Positions 11,058-27,346 of a stretch of DNA of 32,000 bases are shown in pieces (position 1 is the first letter of the stretch; every line of letters begins with the position of its first letter). The position numbers and the translations under genes were made by a program. Below the pieces are notes generated by a model that was given only the letters and a program-made list of their open reading frames with translations, made no database searches and was not told the DNA's origin. The stretch lies in NCBI GenBank assembly GCA_041659445.1, contig JBAZYG010000002.1, positions 60,001 through 92,000 of the forward strand, read 5' to 3'. This DNA comes from Candidatus Saccharimonadota bacterium. Its GTDB lineage: Archaea > Nanobdellota > Nanobdellia > Pacearchaeales > GW2011-AR1.

Positions 11058-11891
11058 ATGAACAATGAAGAATTTCTTAAAAAATTAGAAGTTGAATTAA
11101 AAATTTCAAAAAATTCAGAATATACCTTGAGAAATTATATTTTTTCAAACGAAAAGTTTTTAGATTCTGTAAAAAAACCATTGGAATCTATTAATGAAGA
11201 CGATGTAAAAATATATCTTTCAGAAAAATTAAGTTCAAAATCTTCGACATCTATAATTCTTTTTCTTTCAGCAATAAAATATTCTTTTTCAAATATTTTA
11301 AAAAAAGATATCACATTAGGAATTAAAAGACCAAAAAAAGAAAAAATTCTTCCCGAAGTTTTGACAAAAGAAGAAGTAAAAACCTTAATTAATTCTATTG
11401 AAAATAAAAAATCTAAATTAATGATATCTTTAATGTATGCTACTGGAATGAGGGTTTCAGAATTAATTAATTTAAAAATTAATGATTTGGAATTTGAAGA
11501 AAAAATTTGTCATATACGGCAGGCAAAAGGAAAAAAAGATAGAATTGTTAATCTTCCAAATCAATTATTTGTTAAATTGGAAAAATATGCAGATAAACAG
11601 CGTTTATTAAAATCAGAATATTTCTTTTCTGGAAAAAATGGAAAAATGACTTCGAGAAATCTTCAGAAAATAGTTTCAAAAGCTGCAAAAAAAGCAGGAA
11701 TAAAAAAGAGTGTTCATTGTCATACATTAAGGCATAGTTTCGCAACGCATTTGTTAGAAAATGGTGTTGATATAAGATTAATTCAAACACTTCTCGGGCA
11801 CAGCAATTTAAACACAACTCAATTATATACTCATGTTTCAAAAGAGCAAATAAAAAATGTTAAAAGTCCAATTGACTCTTTAATGAAGTAA
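11058..11891 (+). CDS. xerA: tyrosine recombinase XerA-like
   Basis: 277 aa with an N-terminal SAM-like domain and a catalytic region: ATGMRVSEL, HTLRHSFATHLLENG, LLGHSNLNTTQLYTHV (R..HxxR..Y). Confidence 0.88.
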   Translation: MNNEEFLKKLEVELKISKNSEYTLRNYIFSNEKFLDSVKKPLESINEDDVKIYLSEKLSSKSSTSIILFLSAIKYSFSNILKKDITLGIKRPKKEKILPEVLTKEEVKTLINSIENKKSKLMISLMYATGMRVSELINLKINDLEFEEKICHIRQAKGKKDRIVNLPNQLFVKLEKYADKQRLLKSEYFFSGKNGKMTSRNLQKIVSKAAKKAGIKKSVHCHTLRHSFATHLLENGVDIRLIQTLLGHSNLNTTQLYTHVSKEQIKNVKSPIDSLMK

Positions 11892-11892
11892 A

Positions 11893-12330
11893 ATGGAAGA
11901 ATTAGAAAAACTTAAACAAGAGAATTTTGAATTAAAAAAAGAAATAGAAAAATTAAAAAATTTATTAAATAATCGAGGGAAAACTCAAAAATCAGGAATG
12001 ATAAAAAAAGCAAGTTCAGGAAAAGTTATGTCAAAACCTGCTTTTGGATATAAAATAGAATTCGGAAAATTAATAAAAGATAGTGAAAACGCAAAAAAAG
12101 TTCAAGAAATATTCTCTGAATTTTTAATTAATGATATAAGTTTGAATAAATTATCTAAGAAATACAATTTTTCAGTTAATGGTTTGAAAAAAATTTTAAC
12201 TAATTTTACATACATTGGAAAAATAAAATTTGATAATTCAGTTCATGAAGGAACCCATGAGCCAATAATTTCATCAACAGATTTTAATCATGTTCAAGAT
12301 AAATTAGAAAAAATGCTTAAGAAGAATTGA
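11893..12330 (+). CDS. stand-alone 'Recombinase' domain protein (large-serine-recombinase DNA-binding domain without the catalytic resolvase domain)
   Basis: 145 aa with an N-terminal coiled coil. It then shows FGYK...AKKVQEIFSEF...SLNKLSKK...LKKILTNFTYIGK...HEPIISSTDFNHVQ, the conserved pattern of the Recombinase domain. The start is 1 nt after the xerA stop. Confidence 0.65.
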   Translation: MEELEKLKQENFELKKEIEKLKNLLNNRGKTQKSGMIKKASSGKVMSKPAFGYKIEFGKLIKDSENAKKVQEIFSEFLINDISLNKLSKKYNFSVNGLKKILTNFTYIGKIKFDNSVHEGTHEPIISSTDFNHVQDKLEKMLKKN

Positions 12331-13906: not shown

Positions 13907-14305
13907 TTAATTAAATTTAGAAAGTTTTTCAACTTCTATATATTTTGGTTTAATTTCTTTTTTCATTCCAAAGAATTTTTTACCTTCAAATTCTTTTGGA
14001 ATATTATCATAGCATCTTAATTTTTTCCAAGCAATTCTTCCTCTTCCTTCTCTATAATCTGGCAACATTCCTCTTATTGTTCTTTTAACAATTTTATAAT
14101 TTAATCTAGAGTGTTTTGGTCCTTTTTGGCTTGAACCAATTCTTGATCTTTTTTGTAAAAATTCTTCTTGAATATTTTTTTTATTTCCAGTAATAATTAT
14201 TTTGCTACAATTTAATATAATTATATCTTCTCCTTTTAGCAATTCTTTAGCTGTGAAACTTGCTAATCTTCCCATTGCAATATCTTTTCCGTCAATAATT
14301 TTCAT
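13907..14305 (-). CDS. rpl13: 50S ribosomal protein L13 (uL13)
   Basis: 132 aa; IIDGKDIAMGRLASFTAKELLKG...IRGMLP...GR pattern, in conserved position between L18e and S9. Confidence 0.9.
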   Translation of the reverse strand: MKIIDGKDIAMGRLASFTAKELLKGEDIIILNCSKIIITGNKKNIQEEFLQKRSRIGSSQKGPKHSRLNYKIVKRTIRGMLPDYREGRGRIAWKKLRCYDNIPKEFEGKKFFGMKKEIKPKYIEVEKLSKFN

Positions 14306-14673
14306 TTTAAAATTTTAACTCCTTTTGCATCTTTATTTTCTTTAATTTCATCTTTTAATAATTTTAATTCGCAATTAGCTTTTAACAACTTTTCCTTTGC
14401 TTTGTCTGAAAAATTTAAAGCACAAATTCGGATTTTTTTAGTTATTTCTCCGACAGATAAAACCTTTCCTGGAATTGCAATTATTTCACCTGGTTTTGAA
14501 TTTTTATCAATGTAATCTAAATTAATTTCAGATTTTTTTCTTGTTGGTCCAGAAAGAATAGAAGCAATTTCAATCCATTTTGAATTTTTTTTAGCTAAAA
14601 TTATTGTTTCAACTAATTCTGGATTTTTCTTTTTAGACAATTGTTTTTGAATTTGTGTTTTTGATTTTTGCAT
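14302..14673 (-). CDS. rpl18e: 50S ribosomal protein L18e (eL18)
   Basis: 123 aa; NPELVETI..LAKKNS.W..IA..LSGPTRKK..INL..I...PGE...IPGKVL..G pattern, with a 4-nt overlap onto L13. Confidence 0.85.
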   Translation of the reverse strand: MQKSKTQIQKQLSKKKNPELVETIILAKKNSKWIEIASILSGPTRKKSEINLDYIDKNSKPGEIIAIPGKVLSVGEITKKIRICALNFSDKAKEKLLKANCELKLLKDEIKENKDAKGVKILK

Positions 14674-14799
14674 TTTGTTTAAATTGAGTTAAATTTACGA
14701 GAAGAATTTATCTTCCCGCTAACGCCAAATTTCTTTAACTCGCGGTGTTTATTCTTTTTTCAGTTTTTAATGGTTTATAAATCATTTGGTTTTAAAAAA

Positions 14800-14883
14800 T
14801 GTGGATGTTAGGATTCGAACCTAAGTAGGCACTAAGCCAACAGATTTTGAGTCTGTCCCGTTTGACCACTCCGGCACATCCAC
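14800..14883 (-). tRNA. tRNA-Leu (anticodon CAA), class II with long variable arm
   Basis: Minus strand GTGGATG-TG-CCGGAGTGGTCAAACGGG-ACAGA-CTCAAAA-TCTGT-TGGCTTAGTGCCTAC-TTAGG-TTCGAAT-CCTAA-CATCCAC-A. All stems pair and the 7-nt loop carries CAA. Confidence 0.92.
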
Positions 14884-15012
14884 TTCTTTAATTAGAGAAT
14901 TTTTATGTTATATAAAAATTGTGGTTTACACTTTCTTAAGCATTTTTATAATAAATCTTTAAAATTCGTTTGAAATACAAAGCTTTATAAATAAATTTAA
15001 TTTATTTAATTC

Positions 15013-15510
15013 ATGGAAAATAAAGGGTTTTTCAATAAAGAAATAGGGAATTTCACTTTTAAATCTCCAGAAATACCCAAAATAAGTGAAATACCTGAAA
15101 TTGCCCAAAATTCCATAAAAGACCCCCTTTTTTACGATTTAGGTAAAGAAAGAATAGAATCTCTTAAAAAAGCAATTTCAGAAATAAAAATTTTAATTAA
15201 AGAAAGAGAAAAGTTAAGTAAAGACACTTTTAACGAAGGTGAAAAACTTAAAACAGAAATAAATAATTTTATTCTTGAAAACGAAAATGCAAACATTGCA
15301 TTAAATTCTGTTTCTACAAATGAATTACTTAGAGAAAAAAACGAATTAAGGTCTAAAAAAATTACAATTTCTGAATCTCAATTAAAAGAAAAAATTGATT
15401 GCTGGAAAGACGTTGCAGTGCTTAAAAAAGAATTAAGAGAACTTGAAATAGAACTTTCAGAAAAAGAAAATAGGATAATTGCATTAAATAAAATTCTCGA
15501 ATCTAATTAA
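15013..15510 (+). CDS. coiled-coil protein, partner of the downstream ATPase
   Basis: 165 aa. The C-terminal two thirds are heptad-rich (ESLKKAISEIKILIKEREKL...LRELEIELSEKENRIIALNKILE). It ends 5 nt before the ATPase gene. Confidence 0.65.
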   Translation: MENKGFFNKEIGNFTFKSPEIPKISEIPEIAQNSIKDPLFYDLGKERIESLKKAISEIKILIKEREKLSKDTFNEGEKLKTEINNFILENENANIALNSVSTNELLREKNELRSKKITISESQLKEKIDCWKDVAVLKKELRELEIELSEKENRIIALNKILESN

Positions 15511-15515
15511 TAAAA

Positions 15516-17534
15516 ATGAAAAGACTTCTTAGTATAGAAGAGTTAAGCACAAAATTAAAACCTTTATTCGGAGAAAAAATTGATCAATTATATTTTAAAT
15601 ATTTAACTTCAAATTCTAACGAAGAAAAAATAGAAATTTTGCAATTATTGACGGCATTATATCAAAAAAATCTTTCAAATTTACTCGATACAAAAATTTT
15701 GTTAGAACCGCCTCCAAAAGAATTAGTTACAGGAGAATACACTCTTGGAAATGTAGTTTATAATGAAAAAGAACTATATCCCTTTAATTTAAGAGAGCAA
15801 GATTGGTCAAGACACATTTGTGTTACAGGTATGTCTGGTAGTGGAAAAACAAATTTAGCATTGAATATTCTTTCAGATTTTATAAAAAAATCAAAGCCAT
15901 TCTTAGTTTTTGATTGGAAAAAAAGTTTTCGACCGTTGGTAAATAAAGATCCTTCATTAATGATTTTTACAGTCGGAAACGAATCTGTAAATAATTTTTT
16001 CAAATTAAACATAAACCGACCACCAAAAGATGTTTCACCAAAAGAATGGATAAATGTTTTGTGTGATCTATTAACAGAAAGTTTTGCAGTTTCATTCGGA
16101 GTTCACAAAGTTTTATTAGAAACATTAGATGAAATTTTTGAAAAATGGGGAGTTTATTCTGGTTTTAATCATTATCCAAATTGGGAGCATGTTAAAAAAA
16201 TGCTTGAAATAAAAGCAAGAGAGGCAAAAAAAAGAGAATCTGCATGGTATGAAAGTGCTTTAAGAATTGCATCTGTTTTAACTTTTGGAAGTTTTGGAAA
16301 AGTTATAAACTACGACGGAAAAAAAAGTCTTTCAGTTGAAGATTTGTTTGATAAAAGAGTTATTCTTGAATTAAATTCTTTGGGAAATATTGAGAAAAAA
16401 TTCTTTTGTGAATATCTTTTAACTTATATTTACAAATTAAAAAAAGCAAATCAATTCAAAGATGAATTAAACTTTAATTATGCAATTTTAGTTGATGAAG
16501 CACACAATATTTTCTTGAAAAATAAAACAAATTTCTTATCTGAATCTGTTACAGACATGGTTTACAGAGAAATGAGGGAATATGGAATAAGTTTAATTTG
16601 TTTAGACCAGCACATTTCTAAAATAAGTGATACTGTTAAGGGAAATTCTGCTTGTCATATAGCATTTCAACAACAACTTCCTGAGGACATTTATGATATT
16701 AGTTCTTTAATGCAAATGTTTGACAGAAAAGAAATTTTTTCAAAAATTCCTGTTGGATATTCTATTGTGAAACTTGCTGAAAGATATAATTCCTCTTTTT
16801 TAATTAAAGTTCCGTTATTTGATTTTTCTGGTGCAGAAGTAGGTGATGAAAAAATAAAATCAAGAATGGATTTTAAATTACTTGAAAATGAAATTGAAGA
16901 ATCAGATAAAGAATTTAAAAAAGAAATAACTTTTCCTTCAATAAAAAATGCAATAAAACCCGGACTAACCTTGAAGAAATCAAAAAAAAGAATTATCTTA
17001 GATAAGGAAGATTTAGAAGTTCCTTTAGAAGTTCAAGATTTTAAGAGAAAAATTGAAAATATTAAAGAGGAATATGCTGGTTTAACTCCTGTTCAAAAAG
17101 AATTATTTTTATTTATTCAATCAAAATTAGATTCAGGACGTGAATTAAAAGATATTGAAAATTTGCTTGAGCAAGGGCTTTCAGAAAAACTTTATAGTTT
17201 TTCAGATGTATTAACTGCAATTAATTATGCAATGGAGCAAAGATTAAAACTTCCTTCAAAATCTTTAACTTTCCAAAATAAAAATAATTTAGAACTTGTT
17301 TCAAATCAATTAAAACATTCTTCTGAAAATTTACCTGACGATGAGAAAAAGTTTGTTGAATTTTTAAGAAAAAATCCAAACAATGAATTAAATACAACTT
17401 CAATATATTCTTCAATGGGTTTTTCAACAAGAAAAGGAAATGTTATTAAAAAAAGGTTAATTGAAAAAAATCTTATAAAAGTTCAAGAACAAAGGACAAC
17501 AAAAGGCTGGCAAAAATTCATAAGATTAGCTTAG
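15516..17534 (+). CDS. HerA/FtsK-superfamily P-loop ATPase (DUF87-like) fused to a C-terminal winged-helix domain
   Basis: 672 aa with Walker A ICVTGMSGSGKTNLALNIL, Walker B YAILVDEAHNIF, then LICLDQH. The C-terminus FVEFLRKNPNNELNTTSIYSSMGFSTRKGNVIKKRLIEKNLIKVQE is wHTH-like. Confidence 0.8.
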   Translation: MKRLLSIEELSTKLKPLFGEKIDQLYFKYLTSNSNEEKIEILQLLTALYQKNLSNLLDTKILLEPPPKELVTGEYTLGNVVYNEKELYPFNLREQDWSRHICVTGMSGSGKTNLALNILSDFIKKSKPFLVFDWKKSFRPLVNKDPSLMIFTVGNESVNNFFKLNINRPPKDVSPKEWINVLCDLLTESFAVSFGVHKVLLETLDEIFEKWGVYSGFNHYPNWEHVKKMLEIKAREAKKRESAWYESALRIASVLTFGSFGKVINYDGKKSLSVEDLFDKRVILELNSLGNIEKKFFCEYLLTYIYKLKKANQFKDELNFNYAILVDEAHNIFLKNKTNFLSESVTDMVYREMREYGISLICLDQHISKISDTVKGNSACHIAFQQQLPEDIYDISSLMQMFDRKEIFSKIPVGYSIVKLAERYNSSFLIKVPLFDFSGAEVGDEKIKSRMDFKLLENEIEESDKEFKKEITFPSIKNAIKPGLTLKKSKKRIILDKEDLEVPLEVQDFKRKIENIKEEYAGLTPVQKELFLFIQSKLDSGRELKDIENLLEQGLSEKLYSFSDVLTAINYAMEQRLKLPSKSLTFQNKNNLELVSNQLKHSSENLPDDEKKFVEFLRKNPNNELNTTSIYSSMGFSTRKGNVIKKRLIEKNLIKVQEQRTTKGWQKFIRLA

Positions 17535-17788
17535 CTTATTTTTGTTTATAGATTATGTTACTTTTATGCAATAGTTACAAATAGAAACATTTATAAATTG
17601 ATTATTCCCTATAAAATAGAAAAAATCATATTCAAAAAACTAAACAAAAAAAACATATTTCAAAAATTACAAAAGAAACAAAAAACCGAGAATAAAACAC
17701 AGAATAAATAAGATAAATAAAATTAAATTTTATCTTGCATTTATTCAAAAATTTTATTCAAAGTTAATAAATTTCTTAAGTAAAAAAA

Positions 17789-17995
17789 TGAAATACCTTT
17801 TTCAAAATCGTTTTAGGTTTTGAAAAACAAGTGAAAAACCGCAAAAGGCTTTTCATGAGAATTATTCTTCATAGAAATATCAACTAGAACTTAAGTGAAA
17901 TACCTCAATTTCTAAGATATTTCATCAAATAAATTTCAAAAAAAATTCAAAAAATAATATGAAATACCCTAATTCAATTAAAAAAAGGTATTTCA
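17789..17995. repeat. iteron-like TGAAAWACC repeats in a 500-bp noncoding region
   Basis: TGAAATACC at 17789-17797, 17896-17904 and 17960-17968. Inverted GGTATTTCA at 17987-17995. Variant GTGAAAAACC at 17831-17840. Confidence 0.8.
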
Positions 17996-18036
17996 CACAA
18001 AATAATTTTTAATATTAACAATTTAAAACTTTAATC

Positions 18037-18234
18037 ATGGAAACAGCAACTTTTTTTCTTTTAATCGGAGCGATAGTTTTCATTTTTTTAGGAGCAATTT
18101 TACTTGTCGCTTCTTCAAAAAAAGAAACCTACCATTTTCCCTGGCTGTCTGTAGCATGCCTAATCGTGGCTTTTGCATTTTGTTTAGCCGCCCTCATCGT
18201 GCAAAACTCGGCCGGCGTTCATCCAGCGAACTAA
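18037..18234 (+). CDS. small two-TM membrane protein
   Basis: 65 aa with two hydrophobic helices (FFLLIGAIVFIFLGAILLVA; SVACLIVAFAFCLAALIV). Confidence 0.6.
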   Translation: METATFFLLIGAIVFIFLGAILLVASSKKETYHFPWLSVACLIVAFAFCLAALIVQNSAGVHPAN

Positions 18235-18265
18235 CTTGCAGGAATTTTAACATCTTTTTAAAACA

Positions 18266-18421
18266 ATGGAACAAATAACTTTAATCATACTCGGAGCAGG
18301 ACTTTCCTGTTTAGGAGTATTAAATTTATTTGATTACAAACATAGAGTAAACAGATCTTCCATTCTTGGAATGGGATGGGGTTTAGCTATGTTTATTTTA
18401 GGGATTTGTATCCTTAAATAA
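18266..18421 (+). CDS. small two-TM membrane protein (51 aa)
   Basis: Hand-translated MEQITLIILGAGLSCLGVLNLFDYKHRVNRSSILGMGWGLAMFILGICILK. It has the same TTTAAAACA-ATGGAA start context as other island genes and is below the track cutoff. Confidence 0.45.
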   Translation: MEQITLIILGAGLSCLGVLNLFDYKHRVNRSSILGMGWGLAMFILGICILK

Positions 18422-18673
18422 TCAAATAGAAATCTGCTAATTTTGGATTAGCCGAGTTGATGCATATCTTGGGAACAGAAGCATCAAATTCTTTTTTATC
18501 TTTTCTTGCCTGCACTTCGTCGATGGATAAGAAGTTCGATTCTTCTTGCAGGCACAATTCAGTGTTAAAAAATTCAAAAACAATTTCGACAAAGCGGAAG
18601 GCGGTTTTGTCAAATTAATTAAAAACAAACCCTTAAAAAAAAGTGCCATAAGGAGGCGCTAGCCGAATGTATC

Positions 18674-19300
18674 ATGAAAAATTTAAATGGAAAAAGTTTT
18701 GATGAACCTGAGGAAGAAAGACTGGTAAATCCCAAAGTTTATCAGGCAAAACCCGAACGGGTTTTTACATATCCCGAAGGGACTTTTGGGAGGTTGTGTG
18801 AAGAACAACACTGCAATCCTGATATTCTAATCTCTTCAGAGACAAAAATATCTCTATTTTCAAAAGTAGGTAATCCGGGGTATCGAATGTATACCTACAA
18901 AATTGAAAACAATGAAACAGACGCGTTGAGCGTCTACGAACCATGGGCGAGAATTGAGCTCAAAAAAGATTTTTTCCTTGAAAGGAAAAATCATGCCAAG
19001 GAATGTGGCCGGATTGCAAAAGAGCTTGGACTTCCGTTTGAATTAATTCTGGCTGTCGGCATTGAGCCAGAAAAACGCCAGGCTCTTCTCCAGTTGAAAG
19101 AAAAAGCCGAATGGTTCAGGGAACTGATCCACGAGCTGAAGGAATGCGGAATTAATAAGAGGAAAATGTCTATTCTCGATCTCATCGGGAGAGAGACATA
19201 CGACTCTTTGGATGTCGAAGGTATGGGGCAAAAAAATTCCTCGACAATTGCCCAATTTCTCACAAGGGGAATAACCATCGAGGGTTATTCTAAAAAATAA
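18674..19300 (+). CDS. hypothetical soluble protein
   Basis: 208 aa with island-type composition and no signal peptide; no motif recognised. Confidence 0.65.
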   Translation: MKNLNGKSFDEPEEERLVNPKVYQAKPERVFTYPEGTFGRLCEEQHCNPDILISSETKISLFSKVGNPGYRMYTYKIENNETDALSVYEPWARIELKKDFFLERKNHAKECGRIAKELGLPFELILAVGIEPEKRQALLQLKEKAEWFRELIHELKECGINKRKMSILDLIGRETYDSLDVEGMGQKNSSTIAQFLTRGITIEGYSKK

Positions 19301-19387
19301 TAATTAACTCGGCAGAAATAAGGCACTGCAATGAGACAAAATATTAACTATTAATTGGATAGGGACATGCTATCCATTTTATTTTAA

Positions 19388-19459
19388 TTCATTATAGCTC
19401 AGTTGGTAGAGCATCTGATTTTATTCAGAAGGTCATAGGTTCGAATCCTATTAATGGAA
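19388..19459 (+). tRNA. tRNA-like gene with bacterial-type D-arm and an aberrant 6-nt anticodon loop (Lys-UUU-like, or pseudo-tRNA)
   Basis: TTCATTA-TA-GCTC-AGTTGGTA-GAGC-A-TCTGA-TTTTAT-TCAGA-AGGTC-ATAGG-TTCGAAT-CCTAT-TAATGGA-A. All four stems pair, but the total is 72 nt because the anticodon loop is one nt short. Confidence 0.6.
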
Positions 19460-19460
19460 C

Positions 19461-19910
19461 AATGTTCTCTTTTGAACATTTTAGCTTCATCCCTTGAAGC
19501 TTGCTCATACATGAGCATTTCGTTTCTCAATTTCTTTGAGAGACAAACATTTTTCTTTTTTTAATCTGATTATCATGTTTTTTTAATCAGGTTTCATTCG
19601 CTGAAATTTCCTTCAGCAAACATTTTCCAAAAACTCTTTAGATTTCAGAGCCAAAACAAAATCAATTTGTTATTTTATTTATTTTCAGTTATTATTTATT
19701 TTTAATTATTTTTCAAATTAATTACTTTATTAGTATTTAGTTAAGTTCTTTTTATTTCAATTATTTTCTTATCATTATTTTATTTTTCTTTTCGTCATTT
19801 CGTTCTGAAGTGACAAACATTTTTCTTAGTTTTCTTTTTAGTTGCTCTTTTTCATTAATTTATTTTGAGCAACTTTCTTCGGCTAATTCCAGCCAAACAT
19901 TTTCCCTTTT
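19461..19910 (+). repeat. array of short hairpins, four to five followed by a conserved AAACATTTT(T)C tail
   Basis: Stems TCTCAA/TTGAGA (tail at 19545), GCTGAA/TTCAGC (tail at 19618), GTCATTTC/GAAGTGAC (tail at 19814) and GGCT/AGCC (tail at 19895), plus AATGTTC/GAACATT at 19461-19480. More hairpins at 19483-19501, 19502-19517, 19566-19590 and 19842-19873. Confidence 0.8.
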
Positions 19911-19966
19911 AATTTTTCTTCTGAATTTTTTTTAAACAAATATTAACAATTTAATTTCAAAACGTC

Positions 19967-20806
19967 ATGAAAAATTTAATTTCAAAAAATTGTTCATCGA
20001 TTCTGCCGTTCTTTCTGATTGCATTAATTGCTATCTTTGCATTTTGCTGTGCAAGACCAGTGAATGCTCAATCCACGTGGGATTGTGAAAGGTATTCAGA
20101 TCCCTTTTCATTCAACGTCAAACAAGTCAATAGTTCAATTTGGATTTTGAGTTATTCGATTAAGAATGATTCAATTATGACATTCAACCATGCCGGCGTG
20201 ACCTCTTTGGAGTTGACTTCAAATGATATAATTCTTGATTCCATTGAGGTTGTCTTTGTGTCAAAATTTCCTTTTTCAAGTACACAAATTCAAGCCAGTC
20301 TTAAAAAAGTTTATTTTGAAAATTCCCCACAATTAGTGAGGCAAGATGTTATTTTCAAAACTTTTCCGAAGTGGCCAGACAAGAAAATAGAAACGTTTTA
20401 CATTTACTGCAAAAAAGAAGGAAATAAAGTAACTTTCTATGATGAATTGGTATTTACTAAAACCAAATCAAATTGGCTTTGGCCGACAGCGTGCGTTATA
20501 GTTTTAATTGGGTTTTTTTTAATTGATGCAATTCAAAAGATTGGGGAAAGAAGAAATTATCTCAAAAATGAAAGCAGGGTAGAAAAGTTTTTTTCAGGAT
20601 TTTTTGCAAATACTTTTTGCAGTTTTGGAGAAGTAATTTTCATCCTTATATTAATTATATTATTTCTTTTTAAGATAATGTCCCTAGTAGAAGATTATTC
20701 TTTAGATAAAATTGGAATAATCTTTTATCTGTCTCTGATTTTCTTGTTCTTTCTCGGAAAATTTATTCTTTACAAAATCTTTTTCCGAGGAATTAAAAAA
20801 TACTAA
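19967..20806 (+). CDS. secreted-domain protein with a C-terminal multi-TM region
   Basis: 279 aa with a signal peptide ending VNA|Q, a soluble domain of about 140 aa, then 3-4 hydrophobic helices. Confidence 0.7.
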   Translation: MKNLISKNCSSILPFFLIALIAIFAFCCARPVNAQSTWDCERYSDPFSFNVKQVNSSIWILSYSIKNDSIMTFNHAGVTSLELTSNDIILDSIEVVFVSKFPFSSTQIQASLKKVYFENSPQLVRQDVIFKTFPKWPDKKIETFYIYCKKEGNKVTFYDELVFTKTKSNWLWPTACVIVLIGFFLIDAIQKIGERRNYLKNESRVEKFFSGFFANTFCSFGEVIFILILIILFLFKIMSLVEDYSLDKIGIIFYLSLIFLFFLGKFILYKIFFRGIKKY

Positions 20807-20813
20807 CTTCTTT

Positions 20814-20890
20814 TAAGGGCAAGTTAAAGAAAAGGATTTTCTACGTTTTGCCTTTTTAGATTAGAGATAGCAATCTAATACTTGCCCTTA
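20814..20890 (+). ncRNA. 77-nt Y-shaped structured element (11-bp closing stem plus two internal hairpins), function unknown; may act as a terminator
   Basis: TAAGGGCAAGT (20814-20824) pairs with ACTTGCCCTTA (20880-20890). Inner hairpins are AAAAGG..CCTTTT and TAGATT..AATCTA. It is followed by TTTTC. Confidence 0.4.
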
Positions 20891-20942
20891 TTTTCAAAAC
20901 TTTTTTTCAAAATTAATTCACCAATTCAAAATTTTAAACGCC

Positions 20943-21632
20943 ATGAAAAATTTAATTTCTTTACTTAAAAAAGTAGGAGTCTTTAAAGCAATCGGAATTT
21001 CTGCTTTAATTGGCTTTATTTTGGTAATAATTTTTCTTGTGCTATTACCAAAAAATTCAAATTCACAAGAAATTTCTTCTCCTGAAAAATGGAAGATTAA
21101 TTCCATAAATTTTGTCGCTGGCGAAACACCCTTGACAAAAGGAATTACTTTAAGCCCAGTTTTTTCAAAAGGTAAATCAACAATAATGATAGATCTAAAC
21201 CAGGAATTAGGAGAACTTATGTTTTTTTATTCTCCTAAAAAATGGTGTTCCATCGGGCCATCAGTAGGGTTCTTCAAGAATACATCTTGGGTAGGACCAA
21301 TTGCTTCATTAAACATTTTTAATGGACATGTTACAACTCTTAACTGGGTGGGATGGAGTTTTGGAAACCCTGAAGCAATCGGAGGAGGAACTACAAATTC
21401 CAACGTTGATTTCTTGTTTTCCTTTCACCAGGTTTCTGTCAATTACTTCGGTGTAGAAGGTTATTATATTCTGCAACACTACCAAAAAAATTTTCCCGGG
21501 CACATTGTAGGGGTTAAGTATACTTTTGCCCTCGGAGATAATTTTTCCCTTTTCGGAGGTTATGCTTATATGTTCCGAGCAGATAAATCCCTTTGGTCCG
21601 CAGGTTTCATTTTGTTATTTCCAGAAAAATAA
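20943..21632 (+). CDS. secreted beta-rich protein, putative beta-barrel (paralog of 21636-22316)
   Basis: 229 aa with a signal/anchor ending SNS|Q and alternating hydrophobic strands. It shares the YSPKKWxSIGPSVG block with the next gene (YSPKEWITFGLSAG). Confidence 0.65.
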   Translation: MKNLISLLKKVGVFKAIGISALIGFILVIIFLVLLPKNSNSQEISSPEKWKINSINFVAGETPLTKGITLSPVFSKGKSTIMIDLNQELGELMFFYSPKKWCSIGPSVGFFKNTSWVGPIASLNIFNGHVTTLNWVGWSFGNPEAIGGGTTNSNVDFLFSFHQVSVNYFGVEGYYILQHYQKNFPGHIVGVKYTFALGDNFSLFGGYAYMFRADKSLWSAGFILLFPEK

Positions 21633-21635
21633 ACC

Positions 21636-22316
21636 ATGAAAGCAAATTTCAAATTAAAAGTTCCCGGTCCATTCACAATTGTAGAATGGATTTTCATCAT
21701 GATGATTGTATTGGCAATCGGAACTTGTTCCAGAACCAATGCTCAAACTTCTCAAAATTTCTTCAAGATAAATGTTCATGTTCAAGTTGTTTCAGACGAG
21801 CAATCTGAAACAAGTAAAAAGTTCAGAACATTTTACCAAGAGGAATTTTATTTTAATCATAAATTTTCTTCGAATTTAGCTTTCACAAGTTTTGCAACAG
21901 TTAGAAATGATCGGGGTGAAATTTATTCTGGATTAGAGTACTCACCAAAAGAATGGATAACTTTTGGTTTGAGTGCTGGTCTAGATGTTGCAAAAGAAGC
22001 TGGTTCATCGTCAGCAACTTTGAGAACTGCAACATCTGTTTCCCTCAAGCCAGTAGAACAATTTGAATTCAAAGGAATTTTTGAATATAGCTCTGAGGAT
22101 TACTGGTTTTTGATTGAGCCAAAATACAATGGAAAGAAATTTTCATTGAGTTTGATTGCCCGTCGATATCATGGTGTCGGGTTTTCATTTTATTGGCCGA
22201 TTGCCAAGGGTAATCTGACTTTATGGTACTATGCGGGATATCTTCAAGGAAAATTCCTCGGAGGTGATGATAACCCACGAGCCTCTTCAGCCTTAGGGTT
22301 GAAAGTTAATTTTTAA
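21636..22316 (+). CDS. outer-membrane-type beta-barrel-like protein
   Basis: 226 aa with a signal peptide ending TNA|Q and amphipathic beta-strand periodicity. The C-terminus is ALGLKVNF, with terminal Phe and alternating hydrophobics (bacterial OMP beta-signal). Confidence 0.65.
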   Translation: MKANFKLKVPGPFTIVEWIFIMMIVLAIGTCSRTNAQTSQNFFKINVHVQVVSDEQSETSKKFRTFYQEEFYFNHKFSSNLAFTSFATVRNDRGEIYSGLEYSPKEWITFGLSAGLDVAKEAGSSSATLRTATSVSLKPVEQFEFKGIFEYSSEDYWFLIEPKYNGKKFSLSLIARRYHGVGFSFYWPIAKGNLTLWYYAGYLQGKFLGGDDNPRASSALGLKVNF

Positions 22317-22347
22317 TTTACTTAATACTAATTTAATTTTTAAAACA

Positions 22348-22842
22348 ATGGAAAATTTTCTTGAAAACAAATCAGTTGCAAAAATCTGCTTGATTCTTGC
22401 AATTATCATCATGGTGATTCTGTCTCTCTCGCCAATAGATGCAAAGTCTCAAGTGATTGTTAATGACGCTGATTCAAGTGTTGTCCTTGACATTCAGAGC
22501 ACCTCTGGCGGTATTCTCATTTCCCGGATGACAGAAGCTCAACGTGACAGCATCTCAGAACCAGCGAATGGTTTGCTGATTTATCAAACAACCGTTCCAA
22601 TGGGTTTTTATTTTTGGGACGGAGTCCAGTGGAACAGGCTCGTAAGTGAAAATGCAGAAGGTATCATACAATATGGTGAGGCAGAATTTTCTGGAGAGCC
22701 TTCCCAGGAATTATTTGAAAGTGTTTTTGGTATCAGACAATTTCATTTTCATTTCACTCTGCTAAGCACAAATCAGAATAAAGTCTTCACTGGCGCCTAC
22801 ATTACTGGGCATGGGTTTTTCTATGAAAAACTCAAGCAATAA
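22348..22842 (+). CDS. secreted protein with an STSGGILISRMT..QRD.I..P..GLLIYQT....W motif
   Basis: 164 aa with a signal peptide ending AKS|Q. From memory, the motif resembles one common in Bacteroidota secreted hypothetical proteins; this was not verified. Confidence 0.6.
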   Translation: MENFLENKSVAKICLILAIIIMVILSLSPIDAKSQVIVNDADSSVVLDIQSTSGGILISRMTEAQRDSISEPANGLLIYQTTVPMGFYFWDGVQWNRLVSENAEGIIQYGEAEFSGEPSQELFESVFGIRQFHFHFTLLSTNQNKVFTGAYITGHGFFYEKLKQ

Positions 22843-22946
22843 CAACTACAACCCTTAATTGGGATTCTGCATTTCTAAATTTCTTTGGCATTATTAAAGA
22901 AATTAAATTCTCAAAATGTTTATTAATCATCAAATTTCAAAATGTC

Positions 22947-23093
22947 ATGGCAAAAAAGAATTTTGCAACCAGAATCATCTTAGAAAATGATGGAGTTTCT
23001 AAAGATGAAGAAATTCCTCTCAAAGCCAAAATGAAAAATATACATAAAACCTACCATCCACTAAAAGGGATGAAAGGAAAAAAAGCAGAATAA
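22947..23093 (+). CDS. small basic protein (48 aa)
   Basis: Hand-translated MAKKNFATRIILENDGVSKDEEIPLKAKMKNIHKTYHPLKGMKGKKAE. It is preceded by the island leader AAATTTCAAAATGTC-ATG and followed by a 10-bp-stem hairpin. Confidence 0.45.
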   Translation: MAKKNFATRIILENDGVSKDEEIPLKAKMKNIHKTYHPLKGMKGKKAE

Positions 23094-23236
23094 AACCCAT
23101 CAGCAACGCAAAAGGCAGGAACTTTTAATCTAAATTAACTAATGGTTTTTGATGAATCTCTATCTTCCCCTGCCTTTTTAATTTGAAAACAATTTATGTC
23201 AAAATATTAATTCAAAACTTTTAATTTCAAAACGTC

Positions 23237-23746
23237 ATGAAAACAAAAGAGAACAATTTTCTGTATTGGGGAGTTGTGATTGTTTTTTTAGTAACGATCA
23301 TATCCCTGGTCTTAATGTTTGTTTCTATAATTTCAAAAGCAAATAAAAAAGATTTAGAAACAAAATCTTCCAACACTTCAAACGTTGTTTTTGTGGAGAA
23401 TTCTGATTCTTCAATAATAATAAACGCAGAAGTTATCATCTCAGAATTCAACGGAATTTCTGATTCCGTTGATTACCAAACCAGCGAGGATTTTATAGAT
23501 ATTTCCTTAGCAATAGAACAATATTATCCTTGCTCAGATACTACTCTCTGTGACAGCCTGAGACAAAATTTTATTGACGAGCTTAGAAAAATTTCAGATG
23601 TTAATGTCCTTGAAATTTTTCTCGAGACAATCAATAGGGTTTTCATCAACACAGACTTTTCAAAAACCGATGACATTAAATCATTAATTACTCAGAGAGT
23701 TAATGATTTATACGCCCTTGAATCATATCAAGAACTCAAAAAATAA
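23237..23746 (+). CDS. N-terminally anchored extracytoplasmic protein
   Basis: 169 aa with one TM (LYWGVVIVFLVTIISLVLMFVSII), and the leader TTAATTTCAAAACGTC-ATG, nearly identical to that of 19967. Confidence 0.65.
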   Translation: MKTKENNFLYWGVVIVFLVTIISLVLMFVSIISKANKKDLETKSSNTSNVVFVENSDSSIIINAEVIISEFNGISDSVDYQTSEDFIDISLAIEQYYPCSDTTLCDSLRQNFIDELRKISDVNVLEIFLETINRVFINTDFSKTDDIKSLITQRVNDLYALESYQELKK

Positions 23747-23785
23747 TTTTCAAAACTTTTTTCAAAACAATTTAAATTAAATGTC

Positions 23786-24178
23786 ATGGAAAAATTTGGT
23801 ATTTATTTAGTATGGATGCTGATACTTCTTGTATTTGCGTTCTTAAATCGCACCATCCTGTATTATGGAGCAATCTGTCCAGCCGTCAGTGGAAGACCTG
23901 TTGCTGACTTAAGACCTTGGAGAATATTCTCTTGGGTTTTCGGAGGAATTTCCTTTATTGTTTACAATTTTCTTTTGTTAGTTCCAATCGACAGCGAGTT
24001 TAAAGATTTCTTCAAACCAGTGTGCCTGATTTTTGCTGGAACCTGTGTTCTGGCATTAATTCTTTTTGCCCTGCTAAGTTCTGATGCAATTTTGATGACT
24101 ATCCGTCGGAGATTTAATCTCGTTGGAATTGCGTTAGGAATTGTCTTGTGCCTAACGCTTTCATTCTTCCTGTTATAA
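23786..24178 (+). CDS. four-TM integral membrane protein
   Basis: 130 aa with four hydrophobic segments. Confidence 0.65.
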   Translation: MEKFGIYLVWMLILLVFAFLNRTILYYGAICPAVSGRPVADLRPWRIFSWVFGGISFIVYNFLLLVPIDSEFKDFFKPVCLIFAGTCVLALILFALLSSDAILMTIRRRFNLVGIALGIVLCLTLSFFLL

Positions 24179-24184
24179 CATTCA

Positions 24185-24224
24185 TTGCATTATGTATCTC
24201 TTGAAGATTATAATGCATTTCTTT
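24185..24224 (+). terminator. hairpin plus T-run (intrinsic-terminator-like)
   Basis: TGCATTAT (24185-24192) pairs with ATAATGCA (24209-24216), followed by TTTCTTTG. Confidence 0.55.
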
Positions 24225-24300
24225 GATTTCAATTACTCAATTTAATTTGAGACAAAATATTTTTCACAAATTTCTATTTATTAATTCAAAAATTTTTACC

Positions 24301-25152
24301 ATGAAAAAAATCGTTTTTTTATTCGGAATTTTCTTCCTTTTTTTAGGAAGTATCTTTTCCCAAGACATCATCTATAAAAGAGATGGGTCCAGAATTCAAT
24401 CAGTGGTTTTGAAAATCACTGAGACGTCGATAGAATATCAATATTTCAATCAACCCGACGGGCCTGTGCGAGTACTCTCTCTAAAAGATGTGTATATGGT
24501 CAGGTACAACGACGGAACAGAAGAACAATTCACATCTGAAGTTCCTGAAGTTCAACCTGAACCTGAGGCTGTTTCCACCACATCTATTATGCCGACGACA
24601 ACAATCAGTCAACCTGTTTCAACAGAACCAATTCAGCCACCAGTTACAACCAAACAAAAATCATCTGGAAAATTCTCCCTCAATGCTGGAGGGTTTCTCC
24701 ATATGTATTACAACGAGGAAATGTCCTCGACATTTGGCACCATGCCTTTGTTCGGCTTGGGTCTTGGCGTGGACATGGATAATATATTTTTCACGCTGAG
24801 ATATAATACTGGCTCTGTGAAGTATGATGAGGATAACTGGACATTAAAGCATTCCCAGTTGGACTTGCTGTTCGATTTAAAGTGGTATAAATCACAGGGA
24901 AGCAAAGCCCAAGTATATTCTGGAATTGGGCTTTCTCTTAATACATTGAAAGATGAAGGTCCAGACAACGAGAAAGAAAAAGGAACAGGTGCAGGGGTTT
25001 TGCTCGAGCTTGGCTTTGATATCTTACTTGCAAATAATTTATATTTGTTTGTCACGGCAACATCTGTGATAGGGAATGTAAATATTTACGAAGAGAAAGT
25101 TAACATCAGCGGAGAACGACTCGGAGTCGGGCTCAAGGTTAACTTTGATTAA
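24301..25152 (+). CDS. outer-membrane-type beta-barrel protein with an N-terminal small domain and a Pro/Thr-rich linker
   Basis: Start taken at MKKIVFLFGIFFLFLGSIFS|QD. It has an N-domain IIYKRDGSRIQSVVLKITETSIEYQYFNQPDGPVRVLSLKDVYMVRYNDGTEEQF, a PEPEAVSTTSIMPTTT linker, about 8 amphipathic strands, and ends GVGLKVNFD. Confidence 0.7.
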   Translation: MKKIVFLFGIFFLFLGSIFSQDIIYKRDGSRIQSVVLKITETSIEYQYFNQPDGPVRVLSLKDVYMVRYNDGTEEQFTSEVPEVQPEPEAVSTTSIMPTTTISQPVSTEPIQPPVTTKQKSSGKFSLNAGGFLHMYYNEEMSSTFGTMPLFGLGLGVDMDNIFFTLRYNTGSVKYDEDNWTLKHSQLDLLFDLKWYKSQGSKAQVYSGIGLSLNTLKDEGPDNEKEKGTGAGVLLELGFDILLANNLYLFVTATSVIGNVNIYEEKVNISGERLGVGLKVNFD

Positions 25153-25269
25153 CTTTTAAATTTTCAAAAAATCCTTAATCGAAATTCTAAAATTAGTTTG
25201 AAGAAAAGAGCATAACTGTGAGTGTATGCTTTTAAATTTTCAAAATGTCTAATAACAAATTTTTTAACA

Positions 25270-26055
25270 ATGGAAACAAAAACAAAAAAAATCACATGGT
25301 GGGACGTAGCATTTGTCGCCATCGTGGTGACTTTGGTGGGGTTTGTACTTTGGGTTTGTCTCACACCGCCGCCCAACAAAATAACCGACGAGAGAGCCCA
25401 ACAAACCCAAGATTCACTCTCAAACCAGTATCGATTTGAGTGTAACTTAATTTCTTTCAACTCAGAACCAGTTCCGGCCTTTTTTGAATGGTTGGAATTG
25501 CAAGGAGAGGGATACACTCCAGTAGGTAATAATCCGGTTCTGGTACCCATACGTTCAGGACAGGAAATGATTTATTCGTATGAAGGTAAAATGTATAAAG
25601 GCATTTTACCAAACACAACCTACTTCATGTGGGAGCCAGCTTCAGGTATGGAATTCAAATGTCTCTCCAGAAATGGAGCAATTATATCCATAACTCCTTA
25701 TGAAACAGGTGAGCCAGTCCAGTATTTTATCCGTCGATACAATGAATTCTGGAGTTTCGAGGAATTAAAAATTCGTAATTATCGTTATTCATTGAACATC
25801 ACCGCAATTTATCCTTGGGGAGAAATTCTCATCGATAACTACGAAGATCTGTTGATGAATTCTTCTGTAAAAAGGTTTCGCTCCTGGGGACCTGCTTATG
25901 AAGTTCAGGTCGGGCAAGCTGAGTTAAATGGGTGGGAAGATTTTTTCCTCGTCAGTCAGGATGGGAAAGCATGGCTTACCCGCGAACAAGAGCAACGACG
26001 ACGTGAAAGTCAGTTCATACATAACGTCGGACCTGGAGGTTTTATACTTCCATAA
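25270..26055 (+). CDS. N-terminally anchored extracytoplasmic protein
   Basis: Start taken at METKTKKITWWDVAFVAIVVTLVGFVLWVCL (single TM); the remaining roughly 230 aa are soluble with no recognised motif. Confidence 0.65.
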   Translation: METKTKKITWWDVAFVAIVVTLVGFVLWVCLTPPPNKITDERAQQTQDSLSNQYRFECNLISFNSEPVPAFFEWLELQGEGYTPVGNNPVLVPIRSGQEMIYSYEGKMYKGILPNTTYFMWEPASGMEFKCLSRNGAIISITPYETGEPVQYFIRRYNEFWSFEELKIRNYRYSLNITAIYPWGEILIDNYEDLLMNSSVKRFRSWGPAYEVQVGQAELNGWEDFFLVSQDGKAWLTREQEQRRRESQFIHNVGPGGFILP

Positions 26056-26246
26056 TTCCCCCAATTATTAAACCCAAAATGTGAAGTTGACAAGAATGTG
26101 ACTTGATGTGCACATTTTTTCTTTTGAACAAATTATTAATTTAAAAAAGAAAGGAGGAAAAAATAATTAAGAGTGTTGGTATGAACATAACCTTATTTTT
26201 AAGGTGTATGTAAAATTATAATTATTCACCTAAATTTTAAATCATC

Positions 26247-26813
26247 ATGAAAAAGATTCTTTTTATTTTCTTTGGACTACTCTTTGCGAGTAGTCTTTTT
26301 GCAATCGAACCGACAGTACCTGCTACCAGCACCGGCGAGAATTCCCCGACGATTTTCACTGCTGAGCAGAAAGCTGAAGCCATCAACGCTTTCGTGACCA
26401 GTGGAAGCATGGAAATGGCTATTCCCGGATTGCCTGATGCACCGCCGCCGGTGAGGTATGAGAACATCTTAGGTTTTGAAGTAACCGCATGTAACTCCAT
26501 GCACATTGCGTATGGGGTGACCGGGGGTAATGAAGAACCTGCTTTTTGGGTTTACCCATGGGGAGGAACCGTTAGAGTAGAAAAAACAGTTTGGCCCCAA
26601 GCAGGACAGCAAGTTTGGGTAAAAGTATTATCCTGTTCAAGCCCACAGCAAGGATATTGCAATCTACATTTAGACCGAAGGGTTTGGTATCCAGATCAAG
26701 GTCCTATGGGCGAGCCCTTATTGTGCTTGTATGGATGGATATGGTGTTATACCGCGGGAAGTATCCTACCTCAAACAGGATACACCGAGGCCGGTTATTG
26801 TGTGACTGAATAG
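26247..26813 (+). CDS. secreted Cys/Trp-rich protein
   Basis: 188 aa with signal peptide MKKILFIFFGLLFASSLFA|IE. It is the G+C-richest gene in the window and its C-terminal half contains 7 Cys. Confidence 0.65.
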   Translation: MKKILFIFFGLLFASSLFAIEPTVPATSTGENSPTIFTAEQKAEAINAFVTSGSMEMAIPGLPDAPPPVRYENILGFEVTACNSMHIAYGVTGGNEEPAFWVYPWGGTVRVEKTVWPQAGQQVWVKVLSCSSPQQGYCNLHLDRRVWYPDQGPMGEPLLCLYGWIWCYTAGSILPQTGYTEAGYCVTE

Positions 26814-26828
26814 CCTATCCTGCTCTTC

Positions 26829-26870
26829 AAGGACTTTATTTCTCTCGAGGATTAAAGTCCTTTTCTTTTG
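26829..26870 (+). terminator. hairpin plus T-run (intrinsic-terminator-like)
   Basis: AAGGACTTTA (26829-26838) pairs with TAAAGTCCTT (26853-26862), followed by TTCTTTTG. Confidence 0.6.
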
Positions 26871-26900
26871 ATTTTAATTTCCTTTAAGGAATCAAAATAT

Positions 26901-27001
26901 AAGGCGTTGGTCAGAAGCAATTCCTGAAGTAATTGCACAAGTTGCGAAAAATCAAATTTTTGTGTGAGAATTCATCCAACCAAGGGAAAATCCAACGCCT
27001 T
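26901..27001 (+). ncRNA. about 100-nt element closed by a 10-bp stem (possible structured RNA), function unknown
   Basis: AAGGCGTTGG (26901-26910) pairs with CCAACGCCTT (26992-27001). It has an internal GCAATT..AATTGC hairpin and lies at the right edge of the G+C-rich island. Confidence 0.3.
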
Positions 27002-27044
27002 CTTTTAATATAAGTCTTTTAACAACTAAAAAAGGGGGTTTATT

Positions 27045-27239
27045 ATGTTTTATCATGTGTGGGTATCTGTGTTTTTAATTGTATTCGGAGCATTAGTGTT
27101 ATCTAGACAGATATCTTTTCCAATTGAAAAACGTTCAACTTCAAGATTATTTTGGGGTTTTGCTTATTTTGGAATAGGCATAAGTCTTTTAACAACTATT
27201 GTTTTATTGAAATACATTAAAGATATTCCTTGGTTTTAA
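27045..27239 (+). CDS. small two-TM membrane protein
   Basis: 64 aa with two hydrophobic helices. It contains the second copy of a 19-bp direct repeat (27180-27198); the first copy is at 27010-27028, just upstream. Confidence 0.5.
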   Translation: MFYHVWVSVFLIVFGALVLSRQISFPIEKRSTSRLFWGFAYFGIGISLLTTIVLLKYIKDIPWF

Positions 27240-27346
27240 ACTAATTAAAAAAATGCTTATTTAATTTTTCAGAATTTTATTTAAGCATTTTTTTTGCAAA
27301 ACAGAACTGCTAAAATATAGCAGTAGTATTTAATTAAAAAAAAGAA

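Follow-up and report, generated by a model that had tools for sequence, protein, structure and literature searches.

A recurrent motif at the start codons of non-paralogous genes in a Pacearchaeote surface-protein island: a candidate island-specific leaderless promoter

Introduction

How are the genes of a fast-evolving surface-protein locus expressed in an archaeon, and what is the role of a short sequence that recurs directly before several of their start codons? To our knowledge, almost nothing is known about gene expression in uncultured DPANN archaea. The question is raised by a 32,000-nt stretch of contig JBAZYG010000002.1 (assembly GCA_041659445.1, positions 60,001 to 92,000 of the forward strand), designated here the window, which belongs to a Candidatus Pacearchaeota genome, a DPANN archaeon of ~25% GC. 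Within the window, a run of same-strand genes at ~18.0-27.0 kb has 30-40% GC and few or no detectable homologues, and most of the encoded proteins carry signal peptides or transmembrane segments. An earlier note on this DNA described a motif shared by the leaders of most genes of this island and proposed that a common promoter, a translation signal or one regulator controls them all. The motif was found to be real and specific to the island, and it stands before about a third of the island genes. We read it, tentatively, as part of an island-specific class of leaderless promoters.

Results

The motif is specific to start codons of the island

Three exact copies of the motif, AATTTCAAAAYGTCATG, are present in the window (19953, 22933 and 23223), and each abuts the ATG of an island open reading frame (ORF). 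None was expected and none was obtained in 100 dinucleotide shuffles of the sequence. When up to three mismatches were allowed, four matches were found, a number not above chance, so loose matches alone carry little weight. The 11 nt before every ATG were also scored against the core TTYAAAAYRYC, for 836 ATGs in the window and 1,328 in 49.25 kb of the genome. A core of at least 10/11 was found at five ATGs in either set, and all five are island starts (19967, 20943, 22947, 23237 and 26247). None of the 31 host starts in the window reached 10/11, and the best scored 9. The similar frequency before host genes that had been proposed as a refutation was not seen.

Among the 14 island starts, three have the strict motif and five a close match, and 23786 scores 8/11. 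The motif is absent at 18037, 18674, 21636, 24301 and 27045, so the description of a motif before most island genes applies to only five or six of the 14. All strings quoted in the earlier note were present, but the detached copy before gene 25270, aaattttcaaaatgtc, spans 25234-25249 and not 25233-25249. This copy overlaps a 17-nt direct repeat, CTTTTAAATTTTCAAAA (25153-25169 and 25229-25245), and because it ends 21 nt from the 25270 ATG the motif need not touch the start codon. What had been called a short variant before 18266, 22348 and 25270 is a separate exact 17-mer, TTTTTAAAACAATGGAA, common to the first two starts; the sequence before 25270 is merely similar. Motif scans gave 11 single matches in IMG/VR, at chance level and uninformative, and at least 120 single matches in JGI metagenomes, also at chance level, with no locus holding two or more copies and none island-like among the matches listed.

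One upstream module is reused before unrelated genes

An all-against-all BLASTP comparison of the island proteins gave no significant pair, and the DNA upstream of their genes shares exact blocks of 16-24 nt. Because non-paralogous genes carry identical upstream blocks, the upstream module has been reused, and paralogy was rejected as the cause of the shared leaders. The motif is thus a cis-element that is non-random, specific to the island and put to repeated use, and gene duplication did not produce it as a by-product. At 24 nt, the longest block of identity in the window (19950-19973 = 23220-23243) covers -17 to +7 in 19967 and 23237. The first 17 coding nucleotides, ATGAAAAATTTAATTTC, are common to 19967 and 20943, as had been reported. 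A 16-mer upstream of 19967, AATATTAACAATTTAA, recurs at 18011-18026, upstream of 18037.

Island intergenic DNA (2,675 nt) holds 19 copies of the heptamer TTCAAAA on the coding strand where 4.1 are expected, and 0 of 300 shuffles reached 19. The heptamer lies within 60 nt upstream of 7/14 island genes and 2/48 host genes, often in tandem with 13-15-nt periods and at distances of -11 to -50 from the ATG. The strand bias is strong, with 12 copies of the octamer TTTCAAAA against one of its reverse complement, TTTTGAAA. When the leaders were anchored at the ATG, information was concentrated at -3 to -1 (GTC) and at +4 to +8 (RAAAA). All 14 island genes start with ATG, and the base at -1 is C in ten and T in one (pyrimidine in 11/14); C at -1 was found in only 6/48 host genes (Fisher p = 5e-5). 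In the strict copies, AATTTCAAAA fills -16 to -7, an A/T-rich proximal element that is weakly diagnostic at 75% A+T. Across genes an ATTAAY box lies at -14 to -26 from the ATG, and the variant boxes ATATTAAC and TTATTAAT fall within -33 to -16. Searched against Rfam at the gathering score, the leaders matched no known RNA family, and the whole window gave only two tRNA matches.

Host genes have a regular promoter geometry of their own

Eight host promoters contain a CTTTAAAA-type TATA box with C at -30 or -29 from the ATG; examples of this regular arrangement precede the gene starts 9046, 12847, 15013, 30466 and 31094. Host genes that lead a transcription unit have T or C at -1, usually T, and no Shine-Dalgarno (SD) sequence. 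An SD-like match was found in only 7/48 host genes, typically operon-internal, and GGAGG is confined to some of the operon-internal genes. Archaeal leaderless mRNAs are associated with a TATA box at ~-27, a transcription factor B recognition element at ~-33, a promoter-proximal element at ~-10 that is rich in A/T and a pyrimidine at -1; they require ATG, and they are mostly monocistronic or carry first genes (PMC5316973, PMC7289017). The host pattern agrees with this description and implies that this Pacearchaeote probably translates most unit-leading genes from leaderless mRNAs. At the 14 island starts, GGAG, GAGG and AGGA are absent from -18 to -4, but 27045 has GGGGG at -11 to -7. The absence of SD sequences from the island, which had been presented as a difference from the host, was borne out (0/14), but it is no contrast, since unit-leading host genes lack them as well.

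Most units end in a hairpin and leave room for a short leader

In most units a stem-loop and U-tract are followed by an AT-rich segment of 36-60 nt and then by the next ATG (Table 1). With so little sequence between most upstream hairpins and the ATG, any leader must be short. The junctions 20943/21636 (3 nt), 18037/18266 (31 nt) and 21636/22348 (31 nt) leave little or no promoter room, and the island is therefore not purely monocistronic. The proposal of autonomous monocistronic modules with a terminator for each gene describes most units, but not these three junctions.

Table 1 Motif copies, candidate boxes, terminator-like hairpins and the surrounding block in the window
Feature	Position	Strand	Remarks
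Strict copy AATTTCAAAACGTC+ATG	19953-19969	+	start of 279-aa gene 19967-20806
Strict copy AATTTCAAAACGTC+ATG	23223-23239	+	start of 169-aa gene 23237-23746
Strict copy AATTTCAAAATGTC+ATG	22933-22949	+	start of 48-aa ORF 22947-23093
Near copy aaaattttaaacgcc+ATG	20928-20945	+	core 10/11; start of gene 20943-21632
Near copy aaattttaaatcatc+ATG	26232-26249	+	core 10/11; start of gene 26247-26813
Loose copy tttaaattaaatgtc+ATG	23771-23788	+	core 8/11; start of gene 23786-24178
Detached copy AAATTTTCAAAATGTC	25234-25249	+	21 nt upstream of 25270 start codon
Short variant TTTTTAAAACAATGGAA	18255-18271	+	start of 51-aa gene 18266-18421; intergenic gap 31 nt
Short variant TTTTTAAAACAATGGAA	22337-22353	+	start of gene 22348-22842; gap 31 nt; identical to 18255-18271
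Tandem array, 3.9 copies of 15-nt unit TTAATTTCAAAACTA	23178-23233	+	Tandem Repeats Finder (TRF); last unit is the strict motif before 23237
Three TTCAAAA units (20893, 20906, 20925)	20887-20931	+	upstream of 20943
AATATTAACAATTTAA block	19939-19954	+	upstream of 19967; contains ATATTAAC at -27 to -20, candidate variant TATA box
ATATTAAT box	23204-23211	+	-33 to -26 of 23237; candidate variant TATA box
TTATTAAT box	22920-22927	+	-27 to -20 of 22947; candidate
TTATTAAT box	24278-24285	+	-23 to -16 of OMP-like gene 24301; same distance in homologue leaders in L009 and L146
Long stem-loop + U-tract, terminator-like	20814-20890	+	after gene 19967-20806; -23.7 kcal/mol, z = -3.3
Stem AAAAGGCAGG/CCTGCCTTTT + U-tract	23110-23178	+	after ORF 22947-23093
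Hairpin + U-tract	24186-24217	+	after gene 23786-24178; z = -2.1
Hairpin + U-tract	25206-25233	+	after OMP-like gene 24301-25152
Hairpin + U-tract	26089-26121	+	after gene 25270-26055
Hairpin + U-tract	26829-26862	+	after gene 26247-26813; ~90% identical to L009 hairpin with different flanking genes
Inserted block	14884-27346	+	between tRNA-Leu(CAA)/L18e and Rpo3; 12.5 kb
DUF87/HerA-type ATPase gene	15516-17534		inside inserted block; host-like GC
OMP-like, outer-membrane-protein-like; L009, L146, see text.

The design of the leaders recurs in related loci

Equivalent loci of relatives were fetched through the Rpo3 gene. In two other Pacearchaeota-type genomes (L142 and L143), genes for secreted proteins and lipoproteins lie on the opposite strand immediately after Rpo3. 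These two loci share with L146, L150 and L009 a common leader design that consists of an ATTATTAAY box, an A-rich spacer, a pyrimidine at -1 and then ATGAAAAA. The design stands before unrelated secreted or lipoprotein genes, and its sequence differs from that in the window; the exact window unit was not found in the related loci. The L143 leaders contain aattattaactaaatttaaagtcATGAAAAAATTT twice, and those of L142 contain aattattaacaattaaaataaaaaatgttATGAAAAATCT twice and are alike over ~60 nt before unrelated proteins. One L143 gene has the canonical CTTTAAAA in place of the ATATTAAC of the window, before the same ACAATTTAATTTCAA spacer.

Homologues of the outer-membrane-protein-like (OMP-like) gene in L009 and L146 (32-56% amino acid identity) keep TTATTAAY at -24 to -16. 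L146 also keeps this gene paired with a homologue of gene 25270, with a hairpin between them; the 25270 protein had no match in a word-indexed homologue search, and its 26% homologue in L146 was found by direct BLASTP. One gene of the equivalent locus in L150 uses GGAGG. Because the design and not the sequence recurs in equivalent loci, it is a lineage habit of the locus rather than the signature of one recent import.

The hairpins at 26829-26871 and 27234-27301 show ~90% and 75% identity to positions 134-175 and 1032-1104 of L009, a 1.1-kb metagenome contig. In L009 both hairpins flank a 56% homologue of the OMP-like gene and not the genes found beside them in the window, so hairpins persist while the cassettes between them change.

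The module as a candidate leaderless promoter

The reading that we favor, with a probability of about 0.45, takes the motif for the TATA-to-start segment of island-specific archaeal promoters, which would yield leaderless or very short-leadered monocistronic mRNAs and would have spread by promoter reuse. A variant AT-rich box (ATATTAAC or TTATTAAT) ~20-27 nt upstream would replace the host CTTTAAAA TATA box, the A/T-rich AATTTCAAAA would sit at the position of the promoter-proximal element (~-10), and YGTC would provide the pyrimidine at -1. Transcription would begin at the A of the ATG or a few nt before it, the mRNAs would need no SD sequence, and each unit would terminate in its hairpin and U-tract. 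The 17-24-nt identities before unrelated genes would have arisen by reuse of the module, through duplication or gene conversion, in a fast-evolving surface-protein locus. The assignment of the TATA box, the position of the transcription start and the activity of the module are inferred from sequence. In favor of this reading are the anchoring of the motif to the ATG, the pyrimidine at -1, the little room left after the terminators, the leaderless habit of the host and the recurrence of the design in relatives. The position of the detached copy also suits a signal for transcription better than one for translation.

Several observations weigh against a core promoter. The spacing of the ATTAAY box is variable, and in several genes the box is 3-6 nt too close to the start for the canonical TATA distance. 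A position weight matrix derived from host TATA boxes found no site at -30 of the island genes, and its best sites lay at -11/-12 (inside the motif), -19, -39 and -41. As a predictor of transcription starts in the island the matrix was discarded for want of a consistent position, a result that makes the promoter reading weaker but is not fatal to it. With its many distances and its tandem units of 13-15 nt, TTCAAAA looks more like iterated binding sites than a core promoter, and the two 31-nt junctions with the short variant offer little promoter room. At 75% A+T, TATA-like strings are also easily found.

The tandem units could instead be operators, in which TTAATTTCAAAAC-type sequences are iterated sites of a dedicated repressor or activator that cover promoter and start, and one factor would switch the whole locus. 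This is an unlikely reading in our estimate, although the excess of TTCAAAA over shuffled DNA, its concentration before island genes and its arrays at variable distances from the ATG all suit it. The block yielded no DNA-binding protein: the one island protein that is not secreted (18674-19300) lacks homologues and has no sequence match in the PDB, its single-sequence AlphaFold model was unusable (predicted local distance difference test, pLDDT, 36), and the search for an island-encoded regulator was unsuccessful. The strand-biased units also lack dyad symmetry, which is unusual for sites of dimeric regulators, and the exact unit is missing from the related loci. We give similarly limited credit to a translation signal, namely an SD-independent start context or enhancer that is A-rich and unstructured, is conserved at -3 to -1 and +4 to +8 and lies in a short 5' leader of mRNAs that start further upstream or are polycistronic. 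Conservation anchored at the ATG and the lack of SD sequences before the island genes are what such a signal predicts. The short variant AAAACAATGGAA also occurs at 31-nt junctions that are too short for a promoter, so translation there has to begin on an SD-less read-through transcript. The detached copy does not fit, TTCAAAA units reach -50, and complementarity to the usual archaeal anti-SD is not apparent; moreover, A-richness at +4 to +8 is expected anyway from a Lys-rich signal-peptide start in an AT-rich genome. The promoter, operator-array and translation-context readings are not mutually exclusive.

That the motif is functionless, a hitch-hiking residue of duplication, slippage or recombination at cassette junctions in low-complexity AT-rich spacers, seems to us decidedly improbable. 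The exact identities are short (up to 24 nt) and local, slippage arrays of the kind found by TRF are present, direct repeats flank a hairpin (25153/25229), and the ~90% identical hairpins of L009 stand beside different genes, so junction sequences do move when the locus rearranges; viral and metagenome scans gave single chance-level matches only (for the metagenomes, among the matches listed). A residue of this kind does not account for three copies at an identical distance from the ATG of a real ORF, for the strand bias and enrichment over shuffles, or for the same design before homologous genes at 32-56% protein identity. Least probable, and by a wide measure doubtful, is a relic of a donor's bacterial signals (a sigma-70 or Bacteroidota-type promoter together with SD-less initiation) that was imported with bacterial-type envelope genes. 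The OmpA/OmpW-like 8-stranded barrel in the island, a PTL_trimer protein with its sole homologue on a contig that bears type IX secretion (T9SS) and BamA genes, the TonB_C protein of a related island and a GC content above that of the host would suit a bacterial donor. A sigma-70 promoter has -35 and -10 hexamers 16-18 nt apart at a consistent distance from the start. Sigma-70 promoters were rejected, because the number of sigma-70-like sites (60) shows no enrichment over the 54.8 expected and the -10 hexamers of the best -35/-10 pairs in 26 leaders lie 3-39 nt from the ATG with no consistent distance. The Bacteroidota -7 element, TAnnTTTG, was likewise rejected, with no occurrence in the 60 nt before any of the 14 island starts, and the contig from a Bacteroidota-like bacterium (L004) lacks the motif. 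A distant archaeal relative keeps the architecture of the locus, so the genes have long resided there.

Comparison with known systems

By its layout the module would work like an archaeal leaderless core promoter, of which it has four defining features. It lacks an SD sequence, begins with ATG, a purine at +1, and has a pyrimidine at -1 and A/T-rich sequence at ~-10. An AT-rich box 20-30 nt upstream is a plausible candidate for the TATA box, which in this class is centered ~26-27 nt before the transcription start. Its units are mostly monocistronic and are followed by U-tracts, and host genes in the same window have textbook geometry. It differs in that the island box is ATATTAAC or TTATTAAT with variable spacing and not the host CTTTAAAA, that the proximal segment is an exact 14-nt string and is tandemly iterated, and that the base at -1 is C where the host usually has T.

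Operator arrays of archaeal transcription regulators can overlap the TATA box and the start site. The island resembles them in having several similar units, spaced by 13-15 nt, over the promoters and starts of a co-located gene set, but its units are non-palindromic and strand-biased, and no regulator gene was identified. Bacteroidota use SD-less, A-rich start contexts and a TTTG/TAnnTTTG promoter. The lack of SD sequences, the A-rich upstream DNA and the Bacteroidota-like encoded proteins are shared with them, but the genome is archaeal, TAnnTTTG is absent from the 14 island starts and the motif from the L004 contig.

Like a series of integron cassettes, the island is a string of unrelated small same-strand genes with imperfect hairpins between them, whose content differs among relatives. 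Integron cassettes are promoterless, whereas each island gene has its own upstream module. As attC cores, the whole intergenic set contains one R' (GTTRRRY) and two R'' (RYYYAAC) sequences, none paired at a hairpin, and this candidate was rejected. No IntI-type integrase lies beside the array; the only tyrosine recombinase (11058-11891) is outside the block, and IntI-specific features were not examined in it. This gene encodes a Phage_integrase/Xer-like protein of 277 aa on the + strand, ~3 kb beyond the tRNA-Leu gene that borders the block. Directly 3' of it is a 145-aa ORF that matches the 'Recombinase' domain of large serine recombinases (pair 11058-12330, +).

Putative mobile promoters of bacteria were defined by identity of 80% or more across no fewer than 50 nt at -150 to -50 (Nijveen, Matus-Garcia and van Passel 2012, PMC3575422). 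As in that class, highly similar upstream DNA stands before non-paralogous genes of one genome and can reach the first codons. The island blocks differ in that they are 16-24 nt long, which falls short of the length required, abut the ATG and occur in an archaeon; only the pair in L142, at ~60 nt, approaches that length.

The locus and its envelope-type proteins

The inserted block is flanked by archaeal core genes at ~25% GC (Orc1/Cdc6 and the PolD small subunit; Rpo3/RpoD with S11, S4 and S13; L21e and RpoN), and NCBI assigns one island protein to a Candidatus Pacearchaeota metagenome-assembled genome. Besides the island it contains the ATPase gene and a 165-aa gene at host-like GC. The distant relative L145 has tRNA-Leu(CAA), L18e and L13 directly after Rpo3, with no block between them. 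A chimeric assembly was rejected: island and flanks are near-identical in contigs of different samples (ERZ27249449, SRR6484324 and SRR18595301), island proteins also occur on NCBI/JGI contigs of up to 222 kb, and another distant relative keeps the order ATPase-island-Rpo3. In this relative, represented by a 70.8-kb contig of a different metagenome (JGI 3300072015), the architecture surrounds a 29% homologue of the OMP-like gene: a DUF87/Zot ATPase comes first, ~27 small genes on one strand come next, and a convergent Rpo3-S11-S4-S13 cluster closes the series. These results suggest that the block is a conserved hypervariable locus, which may span a VirB4/HerA-type ATPase, a string of secreted-protein genes and the convergent Rpo3 cluster. 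The locus is possibly tied to a VirB4/HerA-type secretion or uptake ATPase and to the small membrane proteins encoded at 18037 and 18266.

Searches of Pfam, NCBIfam and PHROGs with ten island proteins returned only a weak OMP_b-brl match and one N-terminal domain match. The OMP-like protein (24301-25152, +) has a signal peptide and ends in KVNFD, and its confident model (pLDDT 89) consists of a small N-terminal beta domain and an 8-stranded barrel. The closest structures to the model are OmpA, NspA, OmpW and OmpX (template-modeling score 0.65-0.75 on target); the cluster names of its homologues were uninformative. The 164-aa protein encoded by 22348-22842 (+) has a PTL_trimer domain (PF26696, precomputed annotation) that includes the sequence ILISRMTEAQRDSI. 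Its only detectable homologue, at 36% identity, is encoded on the L004 contig, together with Por_Secre_tail (T9SS), BamA/POTRA and OmpH proteins. The L142 island encodes a TonB C-terminal domain protein (14193-14885, -; E = 4e-21) and a CBM96/PKD lipoprotein. Envelope proteins predicted to be of diderm-bacterial type are encoded in DPANN archaea, and they are a more surprising feature of the region than the motif. The motif is an ordinary kind of signal, and the locus that it marks is the more interesting object.

The window offers a sequence-only view of the leaderless geometry of the host, with CTTTAAAA at -30, and of a second, distinct module restricted to a surface-protein locus that evolves fast. 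Should this module be a promoter or operator class of its own, it would mark out a group of cell-surface genes that are regulated together and that include some of bacterial outer-membrane type, and such genes are obvious candidates for a role in host interaction. The motif would also serve as a short sequence tag with which to find this gene set in related genomes and to check its expression in metatranscriptomes. It is a long shot that the motif marks a private regulon of a lineage-conserved hypervariable Pacearchaeota locus, whose bacterial-envelope-like proteins would be co-induced through this promoter or operator class to attach to, or insert into, a bacterial host.

Other repeats and a tRNA-like gene

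Two independent Logan contigs (L002 and L003) both end at position 26954 of the window, within a long stem-loop (26901-27001), which points to an assembly break or a variable junction there. A direct repeat of 19 nt, ATAAGTCTTTTAACAACTA, marks the right island edge, with copies at 27010-27028 and 27180-27198, upstream of and inside the 64-aa gene 27045-27239. Both this repeat and the 17-nt repeat CTTTTAAATTTTCAAAA, which has a copy on either side of the hairpin that follows the OMP-like gene, resemble scars of duplication or insertion.

In the 500-nt non-coding gap after the ATPase gene, TGAAATACC occurs in three direct copies and one inverted copy within 210 nt (17789-17995). The whole window contains six copies, against 0.44 expected, and the arrangement is iteron-like or operator-like. 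A further 500-nt non-coding region, downstream of the tRNA-like gene described below, holds four exact copies of CAAACATTTTYC (19544, 19617, 19814 and 19894, within 19522-19905, +). Each copy directly follows a different short hairpin, such that the tail is conserved and the stems vary, and two are flagged as terminator-like. Possible identities of these copies are stacked terminators, small RNAs or what remains of lost cassettes.

The tRNA-like gene (19388-19460, +) lies within the island and scored 64.6 bits against the Rfam tRNA model. Its anticodon loop has 6 nt (UUUUAU), and ARAGORN therefore names no anticodon. It aligns with tRNA-Met(CAT) genes in the L142 and L143 islands, each of which stands 39-40 nt before an unrelated gene whose leader has the shared design. 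The window gene is possibly a tRNA copy in decay or the scar of an old integration.

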